Shown here: one piece after another, positions 3,431 through 30,179 of the stretch
Numbering within the stretch: position 1 is the stretch's first letter
Layout: the number at the start of each line of letters is the position of its first letter
Source of the DNA: Candidatus Bathyarchaeum sp.
GTDB lineage: Archaea; Thermoproteota; Bathyarchaeia; Bathyarchaeales; Bathyarchaeaceae
Length of the DNA: 64,000 bases
Direction of reading: 5' to 3'
Assembly (NCBI GenBank): GCA_026014565.1
Contig: JAOZIB010000026.1
Span: 13,829 to 77,828 of the forward strand
Notes under the pieces: generated by a model
Told to the model about the DNA's origin: nothing
The model's database searches: none
The model's input: the letters and a program-made list of their open reading frames with translations, nothing else
Made by a program: the position numbers and the translations under genes

Positions 3431-3447
3431 AATAAAAAGGGTTTGTT

Positions 3448-5183: not shown

Positions 5184-5205
5184 AAAAGAAGGGGAAGTTT
5201 GCAAC

Positions 5206-5805: not shown

Positions 5806-5815
5806 GTGAAAAAAA

Positions 5816-9888: not shown

Positions 9889-9890
9889 TT

Positions 9891-10754: not shown

Positions 10755-10757
10755 TAA

Positions 10758-11534: not shown

Positions 11535-11551
11535 TTTTTAACCCTTCAGTT

Positions 11552-15292: not shown

Positions 15293-15314
15293 TAAATTCA
15301 GCTCAAAGGTGAAA

Positions 15315-16139
15315 TCAGAGTCTAGTCATAATTTTTGGGGGTAAAATGTTTCCCAAATTTTTGGTTTCTGATTCTATAGGTGTGACTTGGGGCAGGCCAA
15401 CAATTGATTTTGTTACTTTTGATTTAATTCCATATACTGCTTCGATGTTTTCTTCAGTCATGACGGTTTCTGGAGTGCCAACAGAGTAGATTTGACCTTC
15501 TTTTATTAGAACTAATCGGTCAGAGAATCTGCATGCAAGGTTTAGGTCATGTATGGAAATGACTACGGAGCAGTGTTTGCGTTGAGCTAAAGTTCTAAGG
15601 ATGCACAAGATTTCTAGTTGATGGCGAATGTCTAGTGAACTAGTGGGTTCATCCAAAAGTATGATTTCGGGTTGTTGGGCTAATGCACGGGCGATGATAA
15701 CTTTTTGTTGTTCTCCACCGCTTAGTTCGTTAAAGTAACGCATGCCCAAATGAGCGATACCAAGGTAATCTAAGATTTTAGCAACGATTTCTTTGTCGTT
15801 TCTGCCTAGACTCCACTGAACATAGGGCCTTCTTCCCATTAGAACAACATCAAAAACGGTGAAAGGAAAAACGTTCTTAGAACTCTGGGGAACATAGCCC
15901 ATCACTTTAGCTAGTTCTTTGAGTCCGATGTCTGAAATGTCTTTGTTGTCAATTAGTATGGTGTTTTTTTCAGTTTTTAGAATTCGGTTCATGCATTTTA
16001 AGAGGGTACTTTTTCCAGAACCGTTTGGTCCAACAATACCCAATACTTCACCGAATTCTACTTTTAGGTTAAAGTCGTTTAGAACAGGATTTCCAGTGTA
16101 ACTAAACGCCAAATTGTTTATTTCTAAATTCAACCCCAA
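15315..16139 (-). CDS. ABC importer ATPase, FepC/BtuD (iron-siderophore/cobalamin) type
   Basis: Walker A GPNGSGKST, signature LSGGEQQKV, Walker B ILLDEPTSSLD. It overlaps the upstream permease gene. Confidence 0.9.
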   Translation of the reverse strand: MGLNLEINNLAFSYTGNPVLNDFNLKVEFGEVLGIVGPNGSGKSTLLKCMNRILKTEKNTILIDNKDISDIGLKELAKVMGYVPQSSKNVFPFTVFDVVLMGRRPYVQWSLGRNDKEIVAKILDYLGIAHLGMRYFNELSGGEQQKVIIARALAQQPEIILLDEPTSSLDIRHQLEILCILRTLAQRKHCSVVISIHDLNLACRFSDRLVLIKEGQIYSVGTPETVMTEENIEAVYGIKSKVTKSIVGLPQVTPIESETKNLGNILPPKIMTRL

Positions 16140-17206
16140 CTTTGCCTCCTTCTACTTAACAAGATGTAAATGAAGAATGGAACACCCAACAGTGAAGTTA
16201 TTATTCCTACAGGAAACTCCACAGGGGGCATAACAGTTCGTGCTAAGGTGTCTGATGCTAAAAGCAAACAAGAACCAATAACTGTGCAGCACGGTAAAAG
16301 GAATCTGTGGTCACTGCCGATTATCATCCGCGCGAGGTGAGGAGAAATCAAGCAGATGAACCCAATGACCCCAGTAAATGAGATAATAGTTGATGTTGCG
16401 AGAGTTCCTAAAATCATGGAAACCAGCAAAACTCGTTTAGAGTTAACTCCAAGACTGGTTGCTACTTCTTCGCCTAGGCTCATGACGTTTAGGTCCCAAG
16501 ATTGTTTCATCATCAAAAGAATAGAAAACAACACAATAGGAAGAGTAATGAAAACACTATCCCACGAGGCTTTTTGGAAAGAGCCCAAAAGCCAAAAAAC
16601 TACAGCTCGAACAGCTTCGTGTTCGGGAGCCAAGAACTGAATTAATGATAGTAAAGCAGAAAACAAAAATCCGACTGCTACACCGGCCAAAATTACTGTT
16701 TCGGAAGATATTCCACGTATACGGGCAATGCCTAGTACTAACATCATTGCAAGAAAACTGAAAATAAAAGCGTTAATGACAGTCACATAATTGGCGTATT
16801 GTGCCAAAATACCTACACCAAATACTATGGATAAAGCTGCGCCAAAACCTGCAGCTGAAGAAATTCCTAAGATGTAAGAGGAAACCAAAGGGTTGCGGAG
16901 CACGCCTTGCATGACTGCACCAGAAGCAGAAAGCCCTGCACCAGCAATGATTGCCAAGGCAATTCGGGGTAGTCGTAAGTCCATAATAATTATCTGGGTT
17001 ATTGTTGTACACGGGTCAAAATCAAAAGAGGGAAAAATCTTATACATAATAACATTGAAGGCTTCATTAAATCCTGGTGAGCCAGCACCAAGACTAACTG
17101 CAATAACTGAAACTACAACTAAAGTTACTAAAATAGAAAGAATAGCAAGAACCTTGCGGCTCTTGCCTTGAGAATAAAGAGACTCAAGCTCTGCAGCGGA
17201 ACTCAT
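16130..17206 (-). CDS. FecCD/BtuC-family ABC importer permease
   Basis: About 10 TM segments. RLPRIALAIIAGAGLSASGAVMQGVLRNPL and GVIGFICLISPHLAR are FecCD-family hallmarks. Confidence 0.9.
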   Translation of the reverse strand: MSSAAELESLYSQGKSRKVLAILSILVTLVVVSVIAVSLGAGSPGFNEAFNVIMYKIFPSFDFDPCTTITQIIIMDLRLPRIALAIIAGAGLSASGAVMQGVLRNPLVSSYILGISSAAGFGAALSIVFGVGILAQYANYVTVINAFIFSFLAMMLVLGIARIRGISSETVILAGVAVGFLFSALLSLIQFLAPEHEAVRAVVFWLLGSFQKASWDSVFITLPIVLFSILLMMKQSWDLNVMSLGEEVATSLGVNSKRVLLVSMILGTLATSTIISFTGVIGFICLISPHLARMIIGSDHRFLLPCCTVIGSCLLLASDTLARTVMPPVEFPVGIITSLLGVPFFIYILLSRRRQSWG

Positions 17207-20190
17207 GGGTAGAAATAAACTCCTGGTATGTCAGCTCCAAAGAATTTTTCATTAATTTCAGTATTCACGGCAGCGGGATCTATGTCTTCAAACAGGTCAG
17301 GTTGGCACCATTTTGCCCAGCATAGGTATCCAACTATACAGCGTATTCCACCACGGGCAGCCCAATCATAGATGTAGACTTTACCATTTACAACAGCAGA
17401 CACTTCACTTAATTCTGGTCGTTCCATTATCTGTGTTTGCATGTCGATGAAGTCGGCTTCTTCATGATTCACACTTTGAATTGCACGAAGAATAATGTCT
17501 GGGTCCTGTTCGACTACAAACTCGGCACTTAAGACTGGCGCATATTCTGTTTGGTTTTCTGCAATGTTTATTCCACCTGCTTGGTCCAAACCAGGAGTAA
17601 CAAAGGTGTTGTAAGGTGCATACCATTCAAGAAGCACTTTTGGTCGGTCTTCTACGGTGAGGGTTGCAACACGTTCTTTGACAAGATTGTTGTAATATTG
17701 GACGTATTCGATGTATTCATCAGCAGCATCGGGGTCACCTACGATTTTAGCAAGTTTTTGTAGTAGTTTACATGAAAAATCTACTGAAGTTTCATTAGAG
17801 TGAGCTGTTGGTTCGGGGTCCGATGTGTCGCTGATAAAGATGGGAATTCCTGCAGATACAATTTGGTCATACAGTTCTGCATTGTAAGGCAACATTGAAT
17901 CAGCAAAAAGCAAGTCGGGTTCTGCTTCTAGTACCAATTCAACATTTGGCAAGTACGAATTATCGCCAACAACGGGTATGTCAAGAACAGACGGTGGCAA
18001 AGTTGAAGCTTCATCTCGGCCAACGATTCTGTCTTCATATCCTAGTGCGGAAAGCATCTCTGTTAAACCAGAGTTGATGCTGACAATGCGCTCCACAGGC
18101 AGATTAATGGTTAATTCATTCTCGTTTCCATCAGTAACGGTAACAATTTCAGGGTAGGCGTAGACTTGTTGAAGTTCTTCATCAAAGAACAACTGATTCA
18201 TTTCTTCATGAATAGCAGCAGGGTCAATGTCTGCAAACAGGCTAGGATTGAACCATTTTGCCCAATACATCAAACCGATTGGGTATCGAAGTCCCTGGAA
18301 GACTACGGAAGCATAAATGTAAACGCGGTCATCTGAAACAGCAGTTGTTCCACTTAACCCTGGGCGAGAGAGTAGCTCTTCTCGTAGAATTTGCATTCCA
18401 GTAAAGTTGCTACCAGAACTTGCCATTCTGATGATTACTTCAGGGTCTTGCTCCGTTACGTATTCAGGACTTAATGTTGGTGAAGAATCATCAGAGTGCC
18501 CAGAAGCAATGTTTATTCCTCCAGCTTTAAGGAGGATCTCATGACTGGAACTGCCTTCAGCAAAACTTAGCCAGTCTTCGCTCCATTCAATGAAAACTTT
18601 GGGTTTTTCACTTTCGTCAAGAGATTCAGTGCGGTCAAGTACCAAGTTTTCATATTCTTCCATAAAATCAATTATGGTATCTGCATTTTCAGAGTTTTCT
18701 AAAATGTTACCTAGATAGGTGACCATTTCAGGCAATCGAGTAAAGTTGCTGGAAGATTCCATGATGACGGGTATACCAGCGCTTCGGATGGTAGCTAGTT
18801 CTTCTGTTTTGTATGAGAGCATTGTATCGGCAACTAACAGGTCAGGCTCTAATTCGAGAATCATTTCAACATTGGGAGTGTATGAACTCCCACCTACGAC
18901 TGTTGCATCCACAATCGATTCAGGGAAAAGAGAGTTTTCGTCTCGTCCAATTATGCGGTCGTCTCCACCGAGGGCACATAAAAGTTCGGTTAATCCAGGG
19001 TTCATACAAACTATTGATTCAACTGGAAGAGCTATCTCAACTTCGTTTCCTTTACCATCTACAACAGTAATGGTTTCGGGTTCAGGTTCATTCGGCTCGC
19101 TTGGCTCTGAAGTTTCATCAGGGTAAACGAATACGCCTGACACGCTGGTTCCAAAGAATTTGTGAACATATTCTTCATGCACTGCAACAGGGTCGATGTC
19201 ATCAAACAGGTCAGGATGGAACCACTTAGCCAGGTACAGCAAGCCGATTGGTCGACGCCCAACTAGGGCAGTGTTTTTGATGATGTAGACTTCTTCATTT
19301 TGCACGGCATCAGTGTCAACCAGTGCCTCGCGGGTTAGTATCCCTTCTCTTAGGGCTTGGAAGTCTTCTAGTTCTTCGCCATCGTAAAAAGTCAGCATAC
19401 GAACAATCATGTCTGGATTTTCTTCAACTACAAACTCGGCACTTACATCCATAGATGATACGTTCTGGTCACCTGCAATGTTTATTGCTCCAGCAGTGTA
19501 AATCATCTCGGTATAAGAGCCAGTTGCACCACTGCTGTACCAATCCTTGTACCATTCAAAGTATACGGTGGGTTTTTCTTCATCAGTTAGAGAGGACACA
19601 CGCTCAACGATAAGGTCCTCATAATGGGACTCGAAGTCAAGAAACTCATCAGCAGCTTCTTGAGCATCCAAGATCACTGCAAGGTTTTGAATATAATCCT
19701 CACGACGTGGATAAGTTGAACTTTCTTCAAGAACTGCAACACCTGCAGCTTCAAGGGCTGCCCGATTCTCGTCAGAGAGCCGTTGACTGGCGATTACCAA
19801 GTCGGGTTCTAGTTCCAAAATTAATTCTAGACTTGCACTAGAGTCGGTGTCTCCAACAACGGGCAAATCTTTAACATATTGGGGCAAAATTGATTCTTCA
19901 TCAGTAGATAGTTTTACGCGTCCTACAATTTTGTCTTCACAACCTAAGGCGGAAATGAATTCTGCACCAATCATTGCAACGATCCTGTTTACGGGCTTTG
20001 TTATTGTTACTTCAGTGTCAGTAACATCAACCACAGTAACTGTAACTGGGGTTTCAGGCTCATTTGGTTCATCTGATACTTCTGGAGTAAAAAAGACGCT
20101 GTAAGCTCCATAAGAGCCTCCAATAATCACGACCAGAAGGATTACCCCTAAAATTATTTTTTTATTTGTTGTGTTTACAAGTTTACTCAT
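17203..20190 (-). CDS. Membrane-anchored protein with three tandem BtuF/FepB-like (Peripla_BP_2-type) substrate-binding domains
   Basis: N-terminal TM anchor (IILGVILLVVIIGG). There are three units of about 310 aa (aa 48-357, 372-680, 681-995). Each starts ..TV(V/T)D..E(V/L)(T/E)I..PV(N/E)RIV....G..E.L.ALG.(E/D)D(K/R)I(V/I)GR and ends ..W(A/L)KWF(H/N/C)P(D/S)LF.DIDP.A(V/I). An acidic Pro/Glu linker (SEPSEPNEPEPE) joins units 1 and 2. Confidence 0.85.
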   Translation of the reverse strand: MSKLVNTTNKKIILGVILLVVIIGGSYGAYSVFFTPEVSDEPNEPETPVTVTVVDVTDTEVTITKPVNRIVAMIGAEFISALGCEDKIVGRVKLSTDEESILPQYVKDLPVVGDTDSSASLELILELEPDLVIASQRLSDENRAALEAAGVAVLEESSTYPRREDYIQNLAVILDAQEAADEFLDFESHYEDLIVERVSSLTDEEKPTVYFEWYKDWYSSGATGSYTEMIYTAGAINIAGDQNVSSMDVSAEFVVEENPDMIVRMLTFYDGEELEDFQALREGILTREALVDTDAVQNEEVYIIKNTALVGRRPIGLLYLAKWFHPDLFDDIDPVAVHEEYVHKFFGTSVSGVFVYPDETSEPSEPNEPEPETITVVDGKGNEVEIALPVESIVCMNPGLTELLCALGGDDRIIGRDENSLFPESIVDATVVGGSSYTPNVEMILELEPDLLVADTMLSYKTEELATIRSAGIPVIMESSSNFTRLPEMVTYLGNILENSENADTIIDFMEEYENLVLDRTESLDESEKPKVFIEWSEDWLSFAEGSSSHEILLKAGGINIASGHSDDSSPTLSPEYVTEQDPEVIIRMASSGSNFTGMQILREELLSRPGLSGTTAVSDDRVYIYASVVFQGLRYPIGLMYWAKWFNPSLFADIDPAAIHEEMNQLFFDEELQQVYAYPEIVTVTDGNENELTINLPVERIVSINSGLTEMLSALGYEDRIVGRDEASTLPPSVLDIPVVGDNSYLPNVELVLEAEPDLLFADSMLPYNAELYDQIVSAGIPIFISDTSDPEPTAHSNETSVDFSCKLLQKLAKIVGDPDAADEYIEYVQYYNNLVKERVATLTVEDRPKVLLEWYAPYNTFVTPGLDQAGGINIAENQTEYAPVLSAEFVVEQDPDIILRAIQSVNHEEADFIDMQTQIMERPELSEVSAVVNGKVYIYDWAARGGIRCIVGYLCWAKWCQPDLFEDIDPAAVNTEINEKFFGADIPGVYFYP

Positions 20191-22241
20191 GCATTTTCAC
20201 ATCCAAAATTTGTTTTCATCATTGCATAATTTTGAGGCAAATGGCTACGAACCGCAGAAGCAAGAGGCGCTGCGCTCAAGTCTTCTAAACGTAGATATTT
20301 TCCACCCATCTCTGAACAGATTTGGTTTACCAAACCAAACGAAATGAAATCCCGTTCAGTATCAATGGCGATGGATTTGATTCCAGCCGATTTAATGGCA
20401 CGGGCTATGGTTTTTGCTTCTTCGATTGGATCACCATCATACATGTTGACGTTTGCCCGACCATCAGAAACCAAAGTTAAAAGAGGAATGGCTTCTTTGT
20501 CCCGTCGCATACACTCACGGATTGTATCCAATCCAGACTTTAACCCATGAGCAAGAGGAGTTCGTCCACCAGTAGGAAGTTTTGCCAAGCATTTTTGGGC
20601 TAACTCCACGCTGCTAGTTGGAGGCAAAATTACCTCTGCCTTGTTTTTCCGAAAAGCAATCATTCCAACCCGGTCACGACGCTGATACGCATCAATTAGA
20701 AGGGATAAAATGGCACCCTTAGTTGCAGTCATGCGCTCTTGGGCAGCCATTGAGCCACTGGCATCAACAACAAACATGATTAAATTGCCCATTTTCGTTT
20801 CTCGAACTTTCTGGCGCAGGTCAGATTTTTCGATAAGTAACGCGTTTTGGCCGTTAGATTCTTCTCGTCTTCTGTTTTGAAAAGGAGCTGCAGCCCGCAA
20901 AGTAGCATCAAAAGCAAGGTCAGTAACTTTTCCTTTAGGAACAGCACTAGAAACATAACGTCCAGTTTTGGAGTTAGTTCTAGTTTTTGACCTTCGTCCA
21001 GAGCCAGTGCGTTGCATCTGGTCCAAAACTGGATTTTCTAAAGGTTTAACTTTTTCTGGAGAATCAGCCTCAAAAACTTGTTCATGTTGGGGATCTGAGT
21101 TTTCCTGGGGGTTATCTGATGAAGAATCATCAGGAGGGGAATTACTCTCAGAAGGAGATTGCTGTTCCTGATTTTGTTTCCATTTATCGATGTTGTCTTG
21201 AATTTGTTGTTGCTCTTGCTTGGGTTCTTCAAAAGGCTGACGACGAAGACGATGAGGAAGCGCCAATTCTGCAGCTTCACGAACATCTTCTTCAGTTACT
21301 TCAGTTCGTCCTCTAAACGCTGCGATGGTGCATGCAGTCTTATAAATCGTAATATCTGCACGGTGCCCATCAACACCAAAGTCCACACAGATTTGAGTGA
21401 TTAAATCAAGCATTTCATCACTTAACTTAACTTTAGGCAAAAGGTCGGTTGCATCAACTATCTTTTTACGCATTTTTTCTTGTTCTTCATGACGACTGTC
21501 AACAAACCCTTGAGGGTCAGATTCAAAGGCAACACGTCTTCGAACAATTTCTGCTCGGGCTTCTCGGTATGGGATGCCTTTAACTTCAACTGTTAATCCA
21601 AAACGGTCCAAGAGTTGAGGACGAAGATCCCCTTCTTCAGGGTTCATGGTGCCGACTAGTACAAAATTGGATGGGTGACTGAATGAAACCCCTTCCCGTT
21701 CAACAAAGTTTATGCTCATTGCAGCAGCATCTAGCAAAACGTCAACTAGGTGGTCGTCTAGCAGGTTTACTTCATCAATATAGAGGATGTTTCGGTTTGC
21801 TTCTGCTAAAAGTCCGGGCTCGAAATGTTTTTCACCTGTTTTGATTGCTTTTTCTAGGTCGATTGTACCTACTAAGCGGTCTTCGGTTGCACCAATAGGC
21901 AAATCAACTACAGAAACAGACTGTTTTGCAACAGAGATTTTTTTTCCTTTTTCTTGTTTGGTGCTACAGGTATCGCACATTTCTTTTTGGTTGATTGGGT
22001 CACAGTGGAAAGGACAATCAGCAACTACATCTACTTCGGGCAGAAGATGAGCAAGAGCGCGTACTGCCATTGATTTTCCAGTTCCTTTTTCTCCTCTTAG
22101 TAGAACTCCCCCGATTTTTGGGTTTATGACATTAAGGATTAGAGCCATTTTCATGGTGTCTTGTCCAACGATAGCAGAGAATGGGTAAACTGTTTTTGTT
22201 CTCCAGCGCATTAGTATGCTTCCTTTTTGTTTTCTGGACAT
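20187..22241 (-). CDS. ChlI/ChlD-type chelatase ATPase: intact AAA+ module + acidic/Gln-Pro linker + vWA (MIDAS) domain in one polypeptide
   Basis: PFSAIVGQD.MK, Walker A GEKGTGKS, Walker B ILYIDEVNLLDDHLVD and NPEEGDLRPQLLDRFGL are ChlI/BchI-like. A long acidic linker follows. The vWA domain has VVDASGSM and LVSDGRANV. There is a 4-Cys insertion CPFHC-x12-CDTC. ATGA overlap with the downstream binding-protein gene. Confidence 0.85.
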   Translation of the reverse strand: MSRKQKGSILMRWRTKTVYPFSAIVGQDTMKMALILNVINPKIGGVLLRGEKGTGKSMAVRALAHLLPEVDVVADCPFHCDPINQKEMCDTCSTKQEKGKKISVAKQSVSVVDLPIGATEDRLVGTIDLEKAIKTGEKHFEPGLLAEANRNILYIDEVNLLDDHLVDVLLDAAAMSINFVEREGVSFSHPSNFVLVGTMNPEEGDLRPQLLDRFGLTVEVKGIPYREARAEIVRRRVAFESDPQGFVDSRHEEQEKMRKKIVDATDLLPKVKLSDEMLDLITQICVDFGVDGHRADITIYKTACTIAAFRGRTEVTEEDVREAAELALPHRLRRQPFEEPKQEQQQIQDNIDKWKQNQEQQSPSESNSPPDDSSSDNPQENSDPQHEQVFEADSPEKVKPLENPVLDQMQRTGSGRRSKTRTNSKTGRYVSSAVPKGKVTDLAFDATLRAAAPFQNRRREESNGQNALLIEKSDLRQKVRETKMGNLIMFVVDASGSMAAQERMTATKGAILSLLIDAYQRRDRVGMIAFRKNKAEVILPPTSSVELAQKCLAKLPTGGRTPLAHGLKSGLDTIRECMRRDKEAIPLLTLVSDGRANVNMYDGDPIEEAKTIARAIKSAGIKSIAIDTERDFISFGLVNQICSEMGGKYLRLEDLSAAPLASAVRSHLPQNYAMMKTNFGCENA

Positions 22242-22384
22242 TGAATTGAAAGGTAATCATCAACAAAATATCGAGCAGAGTTGGGGTTTGCGCGCATTAA
22301 ACAAAAATGCAGGGGCGTCGGCGCTATTCTGTTGGATTGTATTTGGTGCCTTGATTCTTTGTGTGTCAATACGAAACCATCCAG

Positions 22385-22401
22385 TTGGATGGGTTATCCA
22401 A
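22385..22401. promoter_or_regulatory. Operator-like 17-bp palindrome TTGGATGGGTTATCCAA upstream of the chlID-led operon
   Basis: Perfect TTGGAT/ATCCAA inverted repeat with a 5-nt spacer. It lies just promoter-distal of the start codon (22241) and downstream, in gene orientation, of a TTTTATAAA TATA-like box at about 22410-22418. Confidence 0.5.
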
Positions 22402-22431
22402 TAAATAGTTTATAAAACTTTGTTTAACTAA

Positions 22432-22448
22432 AGTTGAATTTGAGTTGA
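22432..22448 (-). promoter_or_regulatory. Direct repeat TTCAACT-N4-TTCAACT (11-nt period) upstream of the TATA box of the chlID-led operon
   Basis: The minus strand reads ATTCAACTCAAATTCAACTTTAG. The same TCAACT-N5-TCAACT arrangement occurs upstream of cobN paralogue 2 (29990-30021). Confidence 0.4.
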
Positions 22449-22657
22449 ATAAAACATTTATTAAAACACAAAAGAATTACACATAAAAAAAGCATTGAAA
22501 TAATTAATTTTTAAAACAATTTCGAAAAAAATAGAACAATCAGAACCACAAGAATCATTAACAAATACATTCATTGGAGTTGAAGAAAAAAATCAAACAG
22601 AAATAAATGTGTAGTAAGAAAAAAGGAAAAAATTTATTTCAACCAACAAACTCGTTA

Positions 22658-22674
22658 TTGGATGGTTAATCCAA
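22658..22674. promoter_or_regulatory. Operator-like 17-bp palindrome TTGGATGGTTAATCCAA upstream of the wHTH regulator gene
   Basis: Perfect TTGGAT/ATCCAA inverted repeat with a 5-nt spacer, 66 nt upstream of the ATG at 22740. It is flanked by A/T-rich TATA-like boxes (AAATTTATTT at about 22630 and CTTATATTTT at about 22681). Confidence 0.5.
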
Positions 22675-22739
22675 CCAAAAACTTATATTTTGTTAAACGA
22701 CACCTAAAGGAAGGTTGAAGAAGCAGACGGGATAACCCA

Positions 22740-23555
22740 ATGAATCTTTTAAGAAACAAAGGCGAATTAACAAAATTTCAGATTCTTTTCGAAATAAAAA
22801 GGAAACAGCCCCACATTAAACAAGAAGAAATAAGCAAGACACTTGGAATAACTGTTCAAGCAGTCTCAAAACATTTTAAAAAATTGATCCATGAAGGGTT
22901 GATTGAAGCCGGACCCGAAAAAGCAAACTACAGGTTAACACCCAAAGCCATCGAAAAACTACAGGAAGGAGCCAAAAGCCTAGAAAGATACGCCCTTAAA
23001 ATCGAGAATGGATTAAAAATTGAACGTGTTTGCCCTGCCATTGCAACCCTGCCCACAAAAACAGGGGACCACGTGGGAATCATAATGAAGGAGGGCGTAG
23101 TGTATGCCGTAGCTTCTGATCATCCCGAGGCTAAAGCTTTTGGAATTGTAACAACGAATGCGGAGCCAGGAGAAGATTTGGGCTTTGAGTACCTAGAAGG
23201 CAAAATCAAAATTGAACGCGGGCGAATCTTAATAATTAAACTCCCCAGCATAAAAGAAGGCGGTTCAAGGTCTGTTGATTTGGTCAAAGTTAAGCAACTT
23301 TACGAAGAGTTTAAGCCAGACAGAATAGGGGTTATGGGTTCTGTTGGAAGGGCAGTTTTGAATAAATTAAATCTAAAAGCAGACATTGAATTTGGTATAA
23401 ACCGAGCTGCCGCCATAGCTGCTTTGCGGGGGTTGAATGTTTTTGTTTTTGTTGTTGGCCGGATGGCAAACCGGATGATAGAAGAAATTGATGAAATAAA
23501 CATCAAACGCACAATGAACATAAAATACGAGATGAAAGACGGGAGAAAAACATGA
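22740..23555 (+). CDS. Archaeal winged-helix transcriptional regulator with a C-terminal domain of about 190 aa of unknown function
   Basis: The N-terminus LTKFQILFEIKRKQPHIKQEEISKTLGITVQAVSKHFKKLIHEGLIE is an ArsR/MarR-like wHTH. The C-terminal domain was not recognised. It may belong to the archaeal 'predicted regulator' family of about 260 aa, but that is recollection only. Confidence 0.6.
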   Translation: MNLLRNKGELTKFQILFEIKRKQPHIKQEEISKTLGITVQAVSKHFKKLIHEGLIEAGPEKANYRLTPKAIEKLQEGAKSLERYALKIENGLKIERVCPAIATLPTKTGDHVGIIMKEGVVYAVASDHPEAKAFGIVTTNAEPGEDLGFEYLEGKIKIERGRILIIKLPSIKEGGSRSVDLVKVKQLYEEFKPDRIGVMGSVGRAVLNKLNLKADIEFGINRAAAIAALRGLNVFVFVVGRMANRMIEEIDEINIKRTMNIKYEMKDGRKT

Positions 23556-24280
23556 GCGATCAAAGCTCCCTTCAAACTCGAACAAAAAAAAGCATAGAAT
23601 TCGTTACTTCCGATGCCAAAAAAATTTCAGAAAAATCAAATGAAGAATTATTAGATGCCCTAGAAAAAGTGCGAAGCAAAATCGCCCGTGGACCTGCTCC
23701 AGCGTTTAATGAAGCCCATGCGATTAAAGCAATAGAACTTATTGCCAGCCACAAAATTTTGGGACGAACAACGATGTCTAATAAGCTTGAACTGGGAATT
23801 GGAACAACAAGAACAGTACTAAAGCACCTCAAGAAATGGGAGTTTATTGTAAGTTCAAAACATGGATTTGAGTTATCCGAGAAAGGAAAAAAATTGTCTA
23901 TGCAAATCCAGTCAAAAATGAGCCCCCGAATCCAAGTGCCTAAAACCCAGTTGGCAGTTGGCCCAGTTGTTGTAGCATTAATAGTAAAAAATGCAGCGCA
24001 CAAAATAGACAGAGGAATAGAACAAAGAAACACCGCAATCCGAGCGGGAGCGGCTGGTGCAACTACCCTAGTTTTTAGTGACGGCAAACTAGTCATGCCT
24101 TCGAAGAAAAAACACAGCACCAAAGGTATAAAACAAATACAAGAAGCAGTAACCACCAATCTAAATCCCCAAGAAAACGACGTTATAATCCTAGGCAGTG
24201 GAAGCAACCAAATCAATGCAGAAATTGGCGCCATAATGGCAGCAATAAAACTGCTAAAAAACAACAAGCAAGAACAATAA
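23552..24280 (+). CDS. Second HTH-containing protein, translationally coupled to the preceding regulator
   Basis: ATGA overlap with the upstream gene. The central LGRTTMSNKLELGIGTTRTVLKHLKKWEFIVSSKHGFELSEKG looks like a wHTH. The remainder was not recognised. Confidence 0.5.
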   Translation: MSDQSSLQTRTKKSIEFVTSDAKKISEKSNEELLDALEKVRSKIARGPAPAFNEAHAIKAIELIASHKILGRTTMSNKLELGIGTTRTVLKHLKKWEFIVSSKHGFELSEKGKKLSMQIQSKMSPRIQVPKTQLAVGPVVVALIVKNAAHKIDRGIEQRNTAIRAGAAGATTLVFSDGKLVMPSKKKHSTKGIKQIQEAVTTNLNPQENDVIILGSGSNQINAEIGAIMAAIKLLKNNKQEQ

Positions 24281-25772
24281 CAACAAAAAATTGTAGAGTT
24301 AAGAAAACTATTAACTTTCTTTGTTTTGAAACAAATTATTGCGAACTATTAGAATGAGTTGTGTAGGGTGCAGAAAAATTCAGAAAATAGTCTGTTTTTC
24401 AACATTGTACTTCTATTTGAATACTAATATGCTGCACAGAAGTATGAATCAGTTTAAAGACCATTTTCTTGTAAACGACAACAACAAAAACCTCAGCAAC
24501 AAACATTACGCAAATAAACACAAAAAAGACGTTAGTTAAAGTTTTTTGACTATTTGATAGTTGATTTTGGTCAAAGGTTTCTTGACAAAAATCCTCTTAT
24601 TTTCTCTAAATAGAGCAACTATTGGAGTTAGTTTTGGACAGAAGGAAACTCTTTGTTAGTTCTACGATAGATGCAATATTAGTCTTAACCCTTTTTCCAA
24701 GTATTTTTGGTGCTTTTGAAAATTGTAAAGCAAAAGATTTGGTTAAAAACCAAACTAACAAAATTAGTATCACACAGTTTTCAACATCAGAATTAAGAAC
24801 AGTGGAAAATTGCATAATTTTGAATCCCCCAGGAAATGTAAAAACTCAAAATTTTGGTATATTACGCCACAGGACTGACGGAAACCATTGTACTTTTTGA
24901 CGATGAAAACTCTACATCCGTGCCGATAGACATTATCCACAGTAGAGAAGAAAAAGAAATTTCTATCAAAGTAAAATGGACTTACGGTGCCAGGTGAACC
25001 AAGTTCTGCTACTATCAAAATAGGCGACTTAATGTTAGACCAAAAGTTTTTGTCGGCCTCAGAACATGAATTGATACGAAATAGTAGATTCTATTCTTCA
25101 ATGTTTAATCCAGTGTAATCTTTGCAGTATTTTGCTTTAGAAACTCCCCGCTTGTTGCATTCATTCTTAAAATTGTTCGGGCAATCCACAGTATTACAAG
25201 TTAAATCGTTTACCATTCTCAATCACTCAAAATAAACCTGAATCATTTCTTCTTAAAAAGTTTAAACCAAAAACAAAATGAAAAAACTAGAAAAAGCAAA
25301 TAAATATGAAAGGGAGATTTCTGATTGATGGATAACTTCATTTTAAATCTCTACTCAATTATTCAATCGATTAGAAATAAATTAAAGGGTTTTTCTCAGG
25401 AAACTTTGACAAAACATAACAGCAGAGGATCAGGAAAACTGACTGAATAAAGGTAGCCTCTCCACAAAAGATAACTTTAAGAAATCAACCACTCATCAAG
25501 GGGAATAATCGTAAAATAATTCACCAGTAACAAACAAGCTCTGATAAAGTTCTGAAGACAGCACATATCCAATTAGTCCCATTTTTATCCTTTTCTGCCC
25601 TTTACTTTGATTTCAAACCTAAACAAACCTATAACATAAACCCGTTTAGAACTCATTTAAAAAATAAGATTAGAAATCAAATATCCAAAAAACTATTTTT
25701 TCCTATTTTTTGCGGAATAAAAGTAATAACAGTTTTATGAGTAGTAACATAAAGATTACATGGAGACAAATC

Positions 25773-26180
25773 ATGACAAAGATTGTTCGTGTTGGGGTTA
25801 CTTTTCCTCCAGAATTATTAACAGAATTAGATGAAATCATTGATGACATTGGTTATGAAAGTCGGTCTAAGGCTATTCAGGACGCAGTGTCATTATTTGT
25901 AACCGAACAAAAAATACTGCACAAGCAAGAAGGAAAAAAAGCCGGAGTCCTTGTTATGGTCTACGACCACGATGTGAAAGGCTTAGAAGACGACCTAGTT
26001 GACTCACAACACCATCACCGTGACATAATAAACTCAGTTCTTCATGTCCACTTAAGCGACAACGAATGCCTCGAAGCAGTTGCAGTAAAAGGTAACGCAA
26101 AAGACATCCAAAAATTAGCCCAAGAACTCGCAACACGAAAAGGAGTAAAACAAGTCCGATCCACCATAGTCAGCGCATAA
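25773..26180 (+). CDS. nikR: Nickel-responsive regulator NikR (RHH + C-terminal metal-binding domain)
   Basis: The track ORF starts at 25710. The likely start is ATG 25773, with GGAG 8 nt upstream. The RHH N-terminus is RVGVTFPPELLTELDEII..YESRSKAIQDAV. The C-terminal domain has YDHD..QHHH..HVHL..CLE, a His/Cys pattern typical of NikR. Confidence 0.85.
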   Translation: MTKIVRVGVTFPPELLTELDEIIDDIGYESRSKAIQDAVSLFVTEQKILHKQEGKKAGVLVMVYDHDVKGLEDDLVDSQHHHRDIINSVLHVHLSDNECLEAVAVKGNAKDIQKLAQELATRKGVKQVRSTIVSA

Positions 26181-26304
26181 CACCAACAAGCGCCGGCAAT
26201 ATTTTTTCTGGTTTATTTTCTAAACGCAAGCCTCTTTAGTCAACAACACCAAGACCAATATATCAGCACAGAAAGTGCTGGCAGTCAAAAAGGTAGCAAC
26301 TAAA

Positions 26305-27162
26305 ATGGCAGCCCAAAATGTCCAGATAACTGTTTTAATTGAAAACACACAAAACCCAACAAACCCTAAACTGGAAGCCAAACACGGGCTTTCAATTTAT
26401 GTTACAGCAACAATCGATAACAACAATGTAACAGTACTAATGGACACTGGTTCCTCACCCCAAAAGCTTTTGCAAAACATCAAAGAATTAAAAATCAACT
26501 TAGAAGACGTTGATGCAATTGCCCTTAGCCATGGTCACTACGACCACACAGGAGGACTAATAGCAGTCCTTAAACAAATCAACAAACAAGTTCCCGTCAT
26601 TGGGCATCCAACTGTTTTTAGTCCTAAACTTAGCATGATGCCCCACTTGAGGCTAGTTGGAGCACCGTTCAGGTCTTGTGATGTAGAATCTGCCAATGGT
26701 GTGCCCCTGTTAGCAAGCAACCCGGTAAAGATTGCCAAGGGTATCACTACAACCGGTGAGGTCCCTCGAATAACAAGTTTTGAAAAAGTCAGAGGCTTTT
26801 GGGCAATCCACAAAGAAAACTTTGTTGACGACAAAATTCTAGATGACCAATCCTTGATCATTGAAGTTGAAAGCAAAGGCTTAGTTGTTTTAGCGGGTTG
26901 TGCCCATTCCGGCATAATTAACACTGTAAAGTATGCCCAAAAAATAACAGGAATCAGCAAAGTTTACGCTGTTTTTGGGGGTTTTCATCTCATAGGACCA
27001 AACGAAAGCAGAATTCAAGCAACAATAGATGAGTTAAAAGCCCTTGATCCTGCTGTTGTTGCTCCGTGTCATTGCACCGGCAAAACTGCAATCAAAAAAT
27101 TTGCTGAAGAATTCAAAGACCGTTTTGTCTCTGTTCACACTGGAACTGTCATCAAAATGTGA
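26305..27162 (+). CDS. Metallo-beta-lactamase fold protein (COG1237-like)
   Basis: ITVLIENT..KHGLSIYV..LMDTGSS..AIALSHGHYDHTGGL contains the HxHxDH motif. An alternative GTG start lies at 26275. Confidence 0.78.
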   Translation: MAAQNVQITVLIENTQNPTNPKLEAKHGLSIYVTATIDNNNVTVLMDTGSSPQKLLQNIKELKINLEDVDAIALSHGHYDHTGGLIAVLKQINKQVPVIGHPTVFSPKLSMMPHLRLVGAPFRSCDVESANGVPLLASNPVKIAKGITTTGEVPRITSFEKVRGFWAIHKENFVDDKILDDQSLIIEVESKGLVVLAGCAHSGIINTVKYAQKITGISKVYAVFGGFHLIGPNESRIQATIDELKALDPAVVAPCHCTGKTAIKKFAEEFKDRFVSVHTGTVIKM

Positions 27163-27232
27163 CATGACACATTTTTGAGGTAAAGGAACTTAAACAGCCA
27201 AAGGGTTTACGAGTCATAGAAAGTGGTTACAG

Positions 27233-27949
27233 TTGGACGTAAAAGGATTTGTTGACCTAAGTTTTGTGGATTGGGATGGCAAAGTTTCTTCTGTTCTGTT
27301 TTTGCCAAACTGCAATTTTCGTTGTCCTTTTTGCCACAATGTAAATCTTGTTCTTAATCCCGAAAGTATCGAAACTATTCCCTTTGAATACATAAACGAA
27401 CAACTAAAAAATCAGAAAGGCTGGATAGACGGAGTTTGCATAACCGGTGGAGAACCAACCCTTCACAGCGATTTGCCTGATTTGATTCCAAAAATAAAAC
27501 AGATGGGGTTTTTGGTTAAATTGGACACAAACGGAACTAACCCAGACACGCTCAAGGAGCTTCTGGACAAGAAGCTTTTAGACTATGTAGCTATGGACGT
27601 AAAAGCCCCCTTAACAGTTGAAAAATACTCCAAAGCAATTGGTGTGAATGCAAAAAAGCTGTTAGAAAAAGTTAAACAAAGCATCAGTCTCTTGATGAAT
27701 TCGGATACGGATTACGAATTTCGAACAACCGTTGTTCCCACACTGCACGATCCAGATGACATCAAACAAATATGCCATAGCCTAGAGGGGTGCAAAAAGT
27801 ATGTTCTACAAAAATTTGATGTGAATATTGGGCAAAGAGTTTTGGACCCAACATTTACAACAAAAACAATAACCAACGATGAAATGCAGAAATTTTTGGT
27901 TGCTGCAAAGGAAATAATTCCAAACACAAAAGCCCGCGGGCTAGTTTAA
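27233..27949 (+). CDS. Radical SAM activating enzyme, NrdG/PflA-like
   Basis: SFVDWDGKVSSVLFLPNCNFRCPFCHN carries the CxxxCxxC cluster motif, followed by GVCITGGEPT. TTG start. Confidence 0.78.
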   Translation: MDVKGFVDLSFVDWDGKVSSVLFLPNCNFRCPFCHNVNLVLNPESIETIPFEYINEQLKNQKGWIDGVCITGGEPTLHSDLPDLIPKIKQMGFLVKLDTNGTNPDTLKELLDKKLLDYVAMDVKAPLTVEKYSKAIGVNAKKLLEKVKQSISLLMNSDTDYEFRTTVVPTLHDPDDIKQICHSLEGCKKYVLQKFDVNIGQRVLDPTFTTKTITNDEMQKFLVAAKEIIPNTKARGLV

Positions 27950-28364
27950 AGCGATTGGATTACCAAAAACCATTTTTTCGTAATCGAAATAATTTCTTAT
28001 TAATTGGGTGAAACGATGTGCTCCCGTCGATGCCTGTACCACCCTACCCATATAAAGTCAAATTTTGGATATCTCGCTGTGAGATTGCGTCAATTTTGGG
28101 ATTTATGCGTGCAGAGCAGGTCTTTTCGACGAGAGCACAATAGTATCTAATGCAGTCAGAAACTAAAAGTTTGAAGACATTTCTACGTTTATTCACATTA
28201 ATTTTTGTTTCAACTTTTACAAAAACAGATTTTTCTTCATATAGAAACTAATCGCAGGGTACATCTCCACATATCATGCACAGACAAAAAACAACTAAAA
28301 TGTGCTTAAATGTAATTGATGCATTTTTTGAGTGATGAAAAGCAATTAAAAACTATTCAAAAAC

Positions 28365-28650
28365 TCATCCGTGATGTAAAGTGATGATGAATTTTGTGCA
28401 TTTTCCGTTGGTACTTTCAACTTTAATGCGGGCTCCATTGGCCTCAATGAACTTTTTACATATTGATAATCATAACCTTTGACCCTGAGTCTTTGTGGAA
28501 AAAAAGTTCAAAGATTTTGGCTAAACATCGAAAAAGAGTCATAACTAGTAATTTATCAAATATGCGAATTTGAAAACAGAATCCGCACCTGAAGAGGTTA
28601 TTAACACAAAAAATATGTTGTAGAGCATAAATAATAAATAAACAAACCAA
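28365..28650 (-). pseudogene. Degraded remnant of a histidine kinase C-terminus (HATPase_c)
   Basis: Minus-strand frame 28365-28469 reads LSICKKFIEANGARIKVESTNGKCTKFIITLHHG*. This resembles the G2-box/C-terminal strand pattern GLGLsI.k.ive.hgG.i.veS..g.Gt.F.f.L. It is preceded by an in-frame TGA where a Gly would be expected. A shifted frame upstream reads ..KIFELFFHKDSGSK, similar to the F-box region. There is no intact kinase ORF. Confidence 0.35.
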
Positions 28651-28695
28651 AAATTAACTCCCTAAATAAACTGGAACAAAACGTCTACAAGGCAA

Positions 28696-29664
28696 TTAGA
28701 TTAGTATCCAAGTAATGGTTAGCAAAGGAAACACAATCAACAGTGCAAACAACAAAGAGCACATCATCATCATTTGCAATGCTTTGTTTATGTGTTGGGG
28801 CGATAGATTATTTTTGTCGCCAATTATGTAATGACCGGGTTTTTCTAACTGAACGTTTAAGGCTCCCGCCATTGCCGATATTGTCCATCCAGCGTTAGGG
28901 CTTACGGTTATGTTTTTGTCTCTGCTCAAAATTTTGTAGGATTGCTTCCAGTCAAGTCGGAGAATAAATGCTGATGCTACCATCAAAAGGGCAGTTAATC
29001 GGGTAGGAATATAATTGACTAATGTGTCCATTGATGCCGAAAACCAACCAATGTTAATATGTTCTTCGTCCTTGTAACCCACCATTGAATCCAAGGTATT
29101 AATTACTCTAAACGCAACCGCTCCTGGAACACCAAACAAAGCAAAGTAAAAAAAAGGTGATGTAATTCCATCCGTGGTTCCTTCCGCTATTGTTTCAACT
29201 GCAGCAGAAATTATGTGACGGCTAGTTAGCTCCTTTGGGTTACGCCTAACGATAAAGGGTAAATACTTTTTAGCTGTTTCAAAATCGTTTTTTTCTACGG
29301 CTTCAGCAACCGGCAAAGTATACTGTTTCATGCACTTGATGGCAAAGGTTGTTTGTAACACAAAAGAAGAAACAATAACATAAACTAAACTACCAAACAA
29401 TTCTCGAGTCCAAAACAACCCAAAACAGGTAGGGCCCACAAATAACGCAAGAAGGCCTAAACAAAGAAAAACACCTTTTATTTTTTCAATTTGTGGGTTG
29501 TTGCTTCTAAGTTTGGGCTTAAGGCGCCCGGCAATTTGCCCCATCCATAATGTGGGATGAAATCTGTCTGGAACTTCACCAAAGATGACATCGATCAAAA
29601 AAGCTAAACAAAAAATCAGCAAAGAATCAAAAAGAAAAGAAACCGATCCCTCAAACATTTTCAT
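28696..29664 (-). CDS. cbiB: Adenosylcobinamide-phosphate synthase CbiB/CobD
   Basis: The N-terminus FGEVPDRFHPTLWMGQIA together with DSMVGYKDE, a multi-TM profile and a length of 322 aa fit CbiB. Confidence 0.88.
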   Translation of the reverse strand: MKMFEGSVSFLFDSLLIFCLAFLIDVIFGEVPDRFHPTLWMGQIAGRLKPKLRSNNPQIEKIKGVFLCLGLLALFVGPTCFGLFWTRELFGSLVYVIVSSFVLQTTFAIKCMKQYTLPVAEAVEKNDFETAKKYLPFIVRRNPKELTSRHIISAAVETIAEGTTDGITSPFFYFALFGVPGAVAFRVINTLDSMVGYKDEEHINIGWFSASMDTLVNYIPTRLTALLMVASAFILRLDWKQSYKILSRDKNITVSPNAGWTISAMAGALNVQLEKPGHYIIGDKNNLSPQHINKALQMMMMCSLLFALLIVFPLLTITWILI

Positions 29665-29842
29665 TCACTTTGTAGGTTCTACAAACAAGTTATTGATTGA
29701 TCCATCACGATATTTCTGGGATGATTTAGATATTTGATTTTCAGAAATTGGTCCATCATTGATTGTGTAGCAAAAATTGCTGTCCCATCATCGATTTTAT
29801 TGCACATAAGTTGTTTATCGGGCGAGTGTTTCGTATAAACAT

Positions 29843-29859
29843 TTGGATGGATAGTCCAA
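29843..29859. promoter_or_regulatory. Operator-like 17-bp near-palindrome TTGGATGGATAGTCCAA in the cbiB / cobN-2 divergent intergenic region
   Basis: Same 8-nt left arm (TTGGATGG) and same spacing as the sites at 22385 and 22658, with one mismatch in the right arm. On the cbiB (minus) side it directly abuts a TTTATA box. Confidence 0.45.
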
Positions 29860-29989
29860 CGATAATCTAGAGGTTATTGATGCAGGTTTATTGTTTCTTG
29901 TTTCTTGATTTGAGTGAAAATGGTATGTGGTCTAACAAACTCTGTGTTGTTTTTAGCAAATGTGCCCCCTTATTGCATTTAATAAACAG

Positions 29990-30021
29990 TCAACTTAAAC
30001 TCAACTCAAGTTAAGTCAACT
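29990..30021 (+). promoter_or_regulatory. Three TCAACT direct repeats (TCAACT-N5-TCAACT-N9-TCAACT) immediately upstream of a TTATAT box of cobN paralogue 2
   Basis: The sequence is GTCAACTTAAACTCAACTCAAGTTAAGTCAACTGTTATAT. The 11-nt periodic pair mirrors the element at 22432-22448. An ATCCA-N7-TGGAT everted repeat follows at 30046-30062. Confidence 0.4.
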
Positions 30022-30179
30022 GTTATATGTTGGGTCAGTTATTGCATCCACAATAGTTGGATTAACATTTGTTGAAAACGTCAATTGGAAACAAACTTTG
30101 AATAAATTTGACTTCCTGTGACGCAATGTTTTCTTCATTACAAATGTTTTTCAAAAGTTTAACTAAAGGAGGCACTTGA

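Follow-up and report, generated by a model that had tools for sequence, protein, structure and literature searches.

Conserved palindromes at cobamide promoters of a Bathyarchaeum contig as candidate operators of a wHTH-DUF7839 regulator

The archaeal regulators ThiR (thiamine) and RbkR (riboflavin), described by comparative genomics, have palindromic operators at genes of vitamin synthesis and transport, their own genes are clustered with the targets, and their hosts are without the bacterial riboswitch for the vitamin concerned. Both proteins combine a winged helix with a fused sensor whose relatives include an enzyme of that pathway. How archaea control cobamide (vitamin B12) synthesis, salvage and cobalt uptake is an old question, and the bacterial B12 riboswitch has not been found in them. 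Here we describe a system of like layout in a stretch of 64,000 nucleotides from Candidatus Bathyarchaeum sp. (contig JAOZIB010000026.1, positions 13,829 to 77,828; hereafter the window), where four palindromic sites lie at promoters of cobamide genes and of a gene for a winged helix-turn-helix (wHTH) protein with a DUF7839 domain. We consider it probable that the four sites serve a transcription factor of the cobamide regulon as operators, with the adjacent wHTH-DUF7839 protein (22740-23555) as candidate binder, a corrinoid-type ligand as its signal and repression as its effect. For the sensor of this protein an enzyme ancestry is only a weak hint at the level of the fold. All evidence of the present analysis is computational.

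The content of the proposed regulon is that of the bacterial cobalamin riboswitch (RF00174), namely cob/cbi genes, salvage genes of the btuFCD type and cbiMNQO, and feedback by the end product is presumed in both. The position of the sites recalls the archaeal repressors MDR1, LrpA, Phr, TrmB/TrmBL1 and SurR, whose palindromic sites lie in the interval between TATA box and start or at the TFB recognition element (BRE), as here. Regulators of that type are dimeric winged-helix proteins whose effect depends on position and which may have dual roles.

The palindrome and its four promoters

A first-pass annotation of the window had proposed that a palindrome recurs in four promoters as the protein operator of a B12 or metal regulon, and the four sequences are indeed found at 1051, 22385, 22658 and 29843. 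The pattern had been written with a three-nucleotide spacer, which gives 18 nt (8+N3+7) and matches nothing; the sites are 17 nt long, and TTGGAWGG-N2-WRTCCAW picks exactly these four in the window, so that the half-sites and their spacing are shared as described. The motif is best written GGWTGG-N5-CCAWCC, a 19-bp near-palindrome in which TGG repeats at 4-nt intervals, hence its overlap with TTGGAT-N5-ATCCAA; all four sites agree with both forms.

Paired half-sites are unexpected by chance, as had been argued, with four matches in the window against 0.00 expected from 100 dinucleotide-preserving shuffles. The single octamer TTGGATGG is another matter, with nine occurrences against 2.6 expected. 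Beyond the four sites it is found at 8576, 11398, 35108 and 37891 on the minus strand and at 21667 and 36016 on the plus strand, which is more than the two single copies first noticed, and none of these has a partner half-site, as had been said of those two. The half-site-only octamers (36016, 35108 and three more in coding DNA) were rejected as chance occurrences for want of a partner and for their low matrix scores. One could argue from the number of octamers expected, and from site 4, which needs two degenerate positions, that the four sites are a chance similarity of AT-rich intergenic regions. With no match in 100 shuffles, an independent matrix ranking and conservation in dozens of genomes, which refutes it, this explanation retains next to no probability.

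The independent ranking came from a 21-nt weight matrix trained on 27 orthologous wHTH-promoter sites of other genomes, with the window excluded. When this matrix was run on the window and on related loci, the four sites took ranks 1 to 4 in the window (scores given below); the fifth-best window score was 11.7, and the maximum over 20 block shuffles was 15.3. The first list of sites is thus complete, holding every strong site of the window and no false ones. The sites and their promoter elements are as follows.

1040 to 1049: TATA box TTATATTTAA between the divergent cbiA/cobQ-hem and hemA-cbiX-cbiC units; identical in loci L082-L084 and L046
1051 to 1069, plus strand: site 4, TTGGAAGGAGTATCCATCC, that is GGAAGG-AGTAT-CCATCC, from the TATA box to the hemA ATG; score 21.7
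22377 to 22403: site 1, with three half-sites, CCATCCA-GT-TGGATGG-GTTAT-CCAATA; score 22.6 (at 22385)
22409 to 22417: TATA box of the site-1 cassette, the palindrome TTTATAAAA; in 66 of 66 sequences TTAT is unchanged
22422 to 22450, plus strand: module GTTTAACTAAAGTTGAATTTGAGTTGAAT, a TTTAAC/GTTRAA inverted repeat with two GTTGAAT repeats 11 bp apart
22658 to 22676, plus strand: site 2, TTGGATGGTTAATCCAACC, that is GGATGG-TTAAT-CCAACC, without mismatch; score 30.0, the best of the window
22683 to 22691, plus strand: wHTH-DUF7839 TATA box, TTATATTTT, with a degenerate module right after it (22692-22720); this promoter type also occurs in L003, L005 and L009
29833 to 29840, minus strand: TATA box GTTTATAC of cbiB, with the conserved CCGATAAACAA after it on this strand at 29812-29822
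29843 to 29861: site 3, TTGGATGGATAGTCCAACG (minus strand GTTGGACTATCCATCCAA), which there precedes the cbiB TATA box by 2-3 nt; score 21.7
30022 to 30051, plus strand: decayed fifth cassette before cobN-2, with the TATA box GTTATAT and then TTGGGTCAGTTATTGCATCCAC; matrix score below 8

All four sites are intergenic and beside TATA-like boxes, as first described, at distances of 2 to 7 bp. Site 4 lies between TATA box and hemA start, the place proposed for it, and it ends (1069) right at the ATG (1070). Because it fills this interval, the hemA promoter is implied to be leaderless or nearly so, and a leaderless hemA has no room for a riboswitch. Site 1 was assigned to the chlID operon, upstream of which it does lie, and the TATA box there faces the wHTH side as well: on the minus strand the order is TATA box, site, chlID, and on the plus strand the site is upstream of BRE and TATA box, in the same register as the orthologous sites. 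Its extra half-site CCATCCA (22377-22383) makes a perfect everted palindrome, ACCATCCA-GT-TGGATGG, which is also present in L009. The wHTH gene has site 2 upstream of its TATA box, at a distance of 6 nt. Site 3 does stand in the cbiB/cobN-2 divergent region, to which it had been assigned, and it belongs to the minus-strand promoter of cbiB rather than primarily to cobN-2, because it is kept upstream of cbiB in L086, where cobN-2 is no neighbor. The decayed box upstream of cobN-2 (30030-30051) is homologous to intact sites at cobN-2 in L087, GTGGATGGAATAACCATCCAA-AC-ATATAAC-module (score 19.3), and in L085 (13.4).

The promoter of the regulator gene is tandemly duplicated in the window (22377-22740), with an A-rich spacer of about 200 nt (22451-22657) that is free of open reading frames (ORFs) between the complete cassette and a second one, in which box and TATA box are followed by the degenerate module and the gene; L009 has the identical layout at 2860-3153. 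A 48-aa ORF downstream of site 3 (29880-30026) was rejected as a gene, as relatives do not conserve it.

As chlID and cbiB have long leaders, of about 140 nt and about 150 nt respectively, riboswitches were considered there and rejected. No Rfam family, and thus no cobalamin, adenosylcobalamin (AdoCbl) or AdoCbl-variant riboswitch, was matched in the whole 64 kb at the gathering threshold or in 22200-30250 at E≤1, and the leaders are unconserved between clades; for these two reasons an RNA switch is disfavored. The chlID leader (22242-22376, minus strand) has GC-rich segments, and its length is kept in close relatives while its sequence is not kept across clades.

Conservation of the sites in related loci

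Through alignment of wHTH-DUF7839 orthologues we fetched 80 metagenomic loci (60-82% protein identity) and anchored their upstream regions on the invariant TATA box. The footprinting of orthologous promoters for which the first-pass annotation had asked shows that the wHTH, hemA, cbiB and chlID promoters keep the site. At the wHTH promoters the palindrome has a fixed register, its proximal CC being 5-6 nt from TTATAA, with the consensus TTGGATAATCCAnCC(G)AA. The variants TTGGATAATCCAACC, ATGGATGGTTAATCCATCC, TTGGATAGTTTATCCAACC and GGTTGGATATACCAACC all fit GGWTGG-N5-CCAWCC, and in 27 of 64 non-identical wHTH promoters no fewer than 9 of the 12 positions agree in this register beside the TATA box; for one such match we estimate a chance probability of about 1e-3.

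The other promoters behave alike. At hemA a stretch of 40 nt, TTATATTTAAGTTGGAAGGAGTATCCATCC|ATG, is 100% identical in L082-L084, whose fusion proteins are 82-90% identical, and in the distant L046 (regulator 64% identical) a site of different sequence, TTATATTTAAGGTGGTCGGTTTATCCAACC|ATG, has the same position. At cbiB the block TTGGATAAWCCATCCAA-ATR-TTTATACG-N10-CCGATAAACAA is kept in L085, L086 and L087 with sites that score 23.0-25.3, and L004 has a box before cobD-cbiB. The cbiB promoters of L018, L030, L051 and L057 were uninformative, with cbiB placed after cobD in an operon or the locus belonging to a clade with a diverged box. Where chlID is divergent from the regulator gene the motif is found 142-154 nt upstream of it (L002-L010), and where chlID instead comes after the regulator gene, as in five loci, the order is in every case TATA box, CTGGATAATCCAACC, 17-30 nt and the chlID start. 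In L087 and L085 cobN-2 has its own box, adjoining the TATA box. The divergent neighbor of the regulator gene is, in most clades, cbiM (MHIMEGFLP...), with cbiN, cbiQ, cbiO and a His-rich permease behind it; in such loci (e.g. L033) the box stands between the shared TATA box and cbiM, and L071 has a separate copy before cbiM.

In total 715 kb of related loci hold 52 non-redundant sites that score at least 16. All those scoring at least 19 are intergenic and at cobamide/cobalt or wHTH genes, so that the dispersed repeat named by the first-pass annotation as an alternative was not found; four matches at 16.2-18.5 are inside coding DNA and were taken as noise.

The core promoter is conserved as well. 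In several orthologues (L012, L040, L056 and others) and in the window (22405-22421) it reads AAAGTTTATAAACTTT, a perfect palindrome in which purine-rich, BRE-like sequence flanks the TATA box on either side. This symmetric BRE-TATA-BRE arrangement suggests that one TBP/TFB site serves two divergent transcription units, and the symmetric core could plausibly nucleate initiation both ways. On the far side of the TATA box from the palindrome lies a module of about 30 nt, GTTTAACTAAAGTTAAAgtcAGGTTGAAT, with 1.0-1.9 bits per position over 66 sequences, which is conserved above the palindrome itself. Its two GTTRAAT repeats, 11 bp apart, are each one base off the half-site GTTGGAT, and possibly the module offers the same protein additional, weaker sites or is bound by a partner instead. 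No gene follows the window copy at 22422-22450, and orphan copies occur by chlID, cobN-2 and cbiM (L032/33/46/59/80, L085/L087 and L071). The form GTTTAACTAAAGTTRAA-N3-4-AGGTTGAAT is seen in that window copy and at L033 10930-10965, L087 about 7630-7665 and L071 about 4655-4690; GTTTAACTAAAG is present in the window at 22422 and 30157 only.

Three other readings of the module were rejected. As a Shine-Dalgarno sequence or 5' untranslated region only, it would not vary in distance to the start (8-25 nt) or recur without a following gene; as an RNA hairpin it has uncompensated substitutions in the TTTAAC/GTTAAA arms; and as a second regulon motif TTTAAC-N4-GTTAAA is absent from other promoters in the window. 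A conserved GC-rich stretch lies between the regulator stop and the chlID cassette in L032 (5250-5330), L033 (10805-10890), L059 and L080. It could encode a small Cys-containing minus-strand peptide, MKQPT(A/V)M(W/R)RFNY(V/A)CDPTC..., whose C-terminal end varies by locus.

The orphan copies bear on the possibility that the palindromes are no regulator sites at all and persist by descent, as parts of a duplicated promoter cassette (palindrome, symmetric TATA box and module), or are a constitutive core element. Whole cassettes with the module do recur by chlID, cobN-2 and cbiM without a gene after the module, and the promoter is tandemly duplicated in the window and in L009. What the hemA and cbiB sites have in common is, on the other hand, the palindrome and not the remaining cassette; the palindrome is kept as its flanks diverge, and the hemA site varies in sequence while it holds position and symmetry. 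Copies are found only at cobamide/cobalt genes, and the window copy at 30030-30051 is visibly decayed, so that unselected copies do not persist. We therefore regard descent without regulation as very unlikely.

A candidate regulator and its signal

The genes of the window that code for possible binders are these.

22740 to 23555, plus strand: wHTH-DUF7839 gene, 271 aa, the candidate regulator (Pfam PF25211, E 4e-17; HTH_24/MarR_2)
23552 to 24280, plus strand: wHTH-DUF4443 gene (Pfam), overlapping the DUF7839 gene by 4 nt
25710 to 26180, plus strand: nikR (Pfam)

The wHTH-DUF7839 protein belongs to the winged-helix regulators of Pfam DUF7839, with a PF25211 match of 62.6 bits against a cutoff of 27 over residues 158-256, and with HTH_24 and MarR_2 at residues 11-59. 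In structure models (pLDDT 80 and 87) the chain begins with a winged helix (1-66) and runs through a long helix (68-92) into a beta domain (100-168) and then an alpha/beta domain (170-267); nearly all of 294 family clusters have the same architecture. Orthologues are 60-84% identical, and their recognition helix GITxQAxSK(Y/H)FKKL is nearly invariant. Across at least four arrangements the gene stays by cbi, chlID-btu-cobN or cbiMNQO genes. In the clade of L027, L051, L057 and L064 the recognition helix changes from FKKL to FQ(K/E/R)L, and a diverged box, AGGCAGGTAATTCATCTAA, is found at the equivalent position, which may be co-variation of protein and site.

A regulon with a real operator could be read by another protein, namely the wHTH-DUF4443 protein, NikR or a factor encoded elsewhere. 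The DUF4443 protein has a CggR/PH0730-like winged helix and its gene overlaps that of the DUF7839 protein, NikR is encoded 2 kb away and remains near cbiB in relatives, and the DUF7839 protein is linked to the sites by gene position. Against this, only 8 of 80 loci, all of the closest clade, have the DUF4443 gene as the adjoining one, whereas the motif spans all clades, and NikR is missing from most loci and is unlinked to the motif. Nor does the motif look like a NikR operator, having a 5-bp spacing against about 16 bp between the half-sites of NikR, a ribbon-helix-helix protein with a NikR_C domain; NikR boxes, of the GTATGA-N16-TCATAC type, are unlike the motif. The DUF7839 gene alone consistently adjoins the motif, and another binder seems to us improbable.

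The signal is a separate question, since the same operator and the same wHTH-DUF7839 protein could serve a metalloregulator that responds to cobalt ion or nickel. This is suggested by the position of the regulator gene, which is divergent from cbiMNQO and a His-rich NicO-like permease in most clades, by the prominence of the chelatase genes chlID, cobN and cbiX among the targets, and by the nearest sequences of solved structure to the winged helix, which are those of the DtxR-family proteins SloR, MtsR, ScaR and MntR (E 0.008-0.3; helix-turn-helix only). The protein itself argues otherwise. No Cys is conserved among the orthologues, and no His outside the DNA-binding domain, which would be unusual for a Co/Ni sensor. 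The hallmark of DtxR/MntR-type metalloregulators is a helical dimerization domain with His/Glu/Asp/Cys metal ligands (Fe_dep_repr_C), often with an SH3-like C-terminus; Pfam finds no match to the metal-binding domains of DtxR or NikR, and the whole-chain TM score is 0.21-0.28, so that the protein is not of this type. The predicted regulon also holds the metal-independent steps cbiB, cobD, btuFCD and cbiZ, and bacterial cbiMNQO is typically controlled by B12 rather than by cobalt. A metal ion as the signal is in our view unlikely. As the sensor is without conserved His or Cys, an organic ligand is favored over a classical Co/Ni site, and a corrinoid-type ligand seems likelier than the Co2+ ion.

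Several Gly-rich loops of the sensor region are conserved among orthologues, which likewise favors an organic ligand. With the full-length protein, fold searches match solved structures by the winged helix only (MarR, IclR and DtxR-like). MarR-type matches (PF12802 30.5 bits, PF01047 27 bits; fold matches over 80-100 residues) do not make it a MarR protein proper, as it has 271 aa with two extra domains and only its winged helix matches. MarR proteins proper have about 140-160 aa, with dimerization helices flanking the winged helix and a ligand pocket between the dimerization and DNA-binding parts. When the isolated sensor was searched, the best Foldseek matches were the N-terminal half of class III tetrapyrrole methyltransferases (3hh1, CysG, CobF, CbiL and CobM). 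The GxGPG S-adenosylmethionine loop of these enzymes is absent from the sensor, the equivalent loop being EGGS, and descent from a methyltransferase half, a weak hint from modeled folds, is to be read as a lead and not as a result.

The sensor family is small (294 clusters at 50% identity, out of 1.84 billion representatives), and its members extend to Methanococcus voltae and the Thermoplasmata. In L090 (6922-8798) a distant DUF7839 regulator is encoded 11 nt downstream of a DUF4430 gene and a DUF6580 gene. DUF4430 is a domain of the transcobalamin C-terminus (PMC4350170), and this neighborhood hints at a tie of the wider DUF7839 family to cobamides. Other distant members have hemD, methylmalonyl-CoA mutase or a tetrapyrrole methylase within 2-4 kb, and one has nothing relevant.

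With the operator reading preferred, the regulon would comprise synthesis (hemA-cbiX-cbiC-cbiD...), the lower pathway (cbiB), chelatase and salvage transport (chlID-btuFCD-cobN-cbiZ) and the regulator gene, to which relatives would add cobalt uptake (cbiMNQO) and cobN-2. By position the sites are what one expects of archaeal operators, dyads that overlap BRE/TATA or the start and that are present at the promoter of the regulator too; the binding itself is predicted. The 19-bp near-palindrome, which always abuts a TATA box, would be read by a dimer. Between TATA box and start (hemA, and chlID, cbiM and cobN-2 here or in relatives) the box would cover about −20 to +1, the classical position of an archaeal repressor, and protein bound there would keep RNA polymerase from being recruited. 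At cbiB and the regulator gene, where it lies directly upstream of the TATA box, the site overlaps the BRE, and the protein would block TFB or, less likely, recruit it. The C-terminal domains would sense a corrinoid or related pathway metabolite, and the ligand-bound form would repress synthesis, salvage, cobalt uptake and itself, in the role of the bacterial B12 riboswitch. Repression is probably the sign of regulation.

A protein operator for a B12 or metal regulon, as first proposed, is supported by positional conservation and by restriction to cobamide/cobalt genes. There are several points on the other side. The scanned loci were selected around B12 genes and are not whole genomes, and in about half of the orthologous wHTH promoters the box is weak or unrecognizable. 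The wHTH gene had been put forward as the autoregulated candidate, and the motif is indeed in its own promoter in most clades; in L083 the hemA site is present and the wHTH gene is without the motif, so that autoregulation is not universal. The association of motif and regulator is one of position, and the binder could be encoded elsewhere. In other archaea a site upstream of the TATA box often serves an activator, and the sign may differ between promoters. The Foldseek scores of the sensor are weak (E 5e-3 to 0.15; TM 0.4-0.58, the top value on the target), the profile-profile comparison by hhalign of the sensor with the four TP_methylases of the window was negative (probability 0.2), and distant family members have mixed gene neighborhoods.

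A wider proposal is more tentative, and on present evidence we would rather doubt it than adopt it: a corrinoid-sensing factor whose sensor derives from half a corrin-pathway methyltransferase might replace the riboswitch in Bathyarchaeia, and possibly in other archaea with DUF7839; through occupancy of one flank of the symmetric BRE-TATA-BRE core it might select the divergent unit that is transcribed, and on the other flank the strongly conserved GTTTAAC..GTTRAA..GGTTGAAT might be weak half-sites or the site of a partner.

Gene content and comparison with known systems

The window has 39.5% G+C, and the nearest relatives of its proteins are in the Bathyarchaeia, close to Ca. Bathyarchaeum tardum. 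No tRNA was found in it. The genes and operons around the sites are the following.

1070 to 3430, plus strand: hemA-cbiX-cbiC fusion gene, 786 aa (Pfam; orthologous fusions in relatives)
1070 to 9114, plus strand: corrin operon, with the hemA-cbiX-cbiC fusion, cbiD and five more corrin methyltransferase/CbiG genes
9142 to 22241, minus strand: long apparent operon with chlID, triple BtuF, btuC, btuD, cobN, cbiZ and an ABC-2 exporter
20187 to 22241, minus strand: gene of a chlID-type chelatase ATPase (Pfam and NCBIfam), first of the chlID-btuF(x3)-btuC-btuD-cobN-cbiZ-ABC operon and candidate target of site 1
28696 to 29664, minus strand: cbiB, adenosylcobinamide-phosphate synthase (Pfam CobD_Cbib; homologues of 320 aa)
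30180 to 33872, plus strand: cobN-2, the second cobN (Pfam)

The fusion gene heads a plus-strand cbiD-cbiE/T/L/F/G/H operon that reaches about 9114. Across an intergenic gap of 72 nt its divergent minus-strand neighbor is the cbiA/cobQ-hem operon, and relatives too carry a divergent cbiA-sirC-hemBLC-cobA-hemD operon. The triple fusion joins HemA (glutamyl-tRNA reductase), CbiX (cobaltochelatase) and CbiC (precorrin-8X methylmutase) and is common to only five database clusters at 82% identity or more; P0126 (537 aa, 65% identical over 40% of the query) has GlutR_N, CbiX and CbiC domains, and other Bathyarchaeia have hemA alone. For cbiB the sources annotate a start at 29658, 6 nt further downstream.

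In the salvage operon a 995-aa protein (17203-20190, minus strand) has three tandem BtuF-like periplasmic binding domains (Peripla_BP_2 x3). Such domains number one in the relatives L002, L007 and L008 and in the more distant L032, L033, L039 and L046, and three in L006. The two CobN paralogues (11552-15292, minus strand; 30180-33872, plus strand) are about 62% identical, and this pair and the ChlID-type ATPase coexist with the early-insertion chelatase CbiX. In an organism with CbiX, salvage or another metal are possible roles for a late-type chelatase.

The 1.4 kb or so between the DUF4443 gene and nikR (24281-25709) are without a convincing gene. In L085, a relative of Bathyarchaeum tardum, a Cas1 fragment (142 aa) and several small ORFs come after the DUF4443 gene instead, which suggests that the stretch is a rearranged or degraded insertion. 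The trio of nikR, metallo-beta-lactamase-fold and radical-SAM genes (25710-27949) is kept as a block near cbiB in L085 (13467-15639) and L086 (13519-15691).

Taken together, the window offers a testable pair, a defined operator and a highly conserved, uncharacterized family of DUF7839 regulators, and the operator is conserved across many Bathyarchaeia and confined to cobamide/cobalt and regulator genes in the scanned loci. From this follows a rule by which B12 regulons can be predicted in a sediment lineage that is very abundant and mostly uncultured. A sensor that did bind a corrinoid would represent a B12-binding protein domain of a new kind. Our searches of the accessible literature for DUF7839, DUF6580 or a dedicated B12 regulator of archaea or Bathyarchaeota found nothing.

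An archaeal factor that is reported to regulate cobalamin biosynthesis genes is TrmB of Halobacterium salinarum (VNG1451C; PMC2710871 and PMC3794607); within the literature searched, this is the only experimental link to archaeal cobalamin genes. TrmB is global and sugar-responsive, has another motif and is not dedicated to the pathway, and the regulator in the window has no TrmB domain. Corrinoid and transcription are coupled by AerR (PMC6199135). The proposed regulator would share such coupling with AerR and with CarH/LitR; these sense light through PF02310, the canonical B12-binding domain, and B12 synthesis is not known to be their target. PF02310, with or without PF02607, was absent from Pfam scans of the full regulator and of residues 96-271 at E≤10.

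In contrast to the cobalamin riboswitch, the element described here is a DNA operator at the TATA box and not an mRNA leader. Compared with MDR1, LrpA, Phr, TrmB and SurR, the protein family and the motif are others, the core is a symmetric BRE-TATA-BRE, and a conserved element lies on its far side. ThiN and the CTP-dependent riboflavin kinase domain were not detected in the regulator, so that its likeness to ThiR and RbkR is one of design and not of membership. It differs from these two in the vitamin (cobamide), in the lineage (Bathyarchaeia) and in having DUF7839 after a beta domain, and the system is known from sequence. It would thus be a ligand-sensing winged-helix regulator with a palindromic operator.

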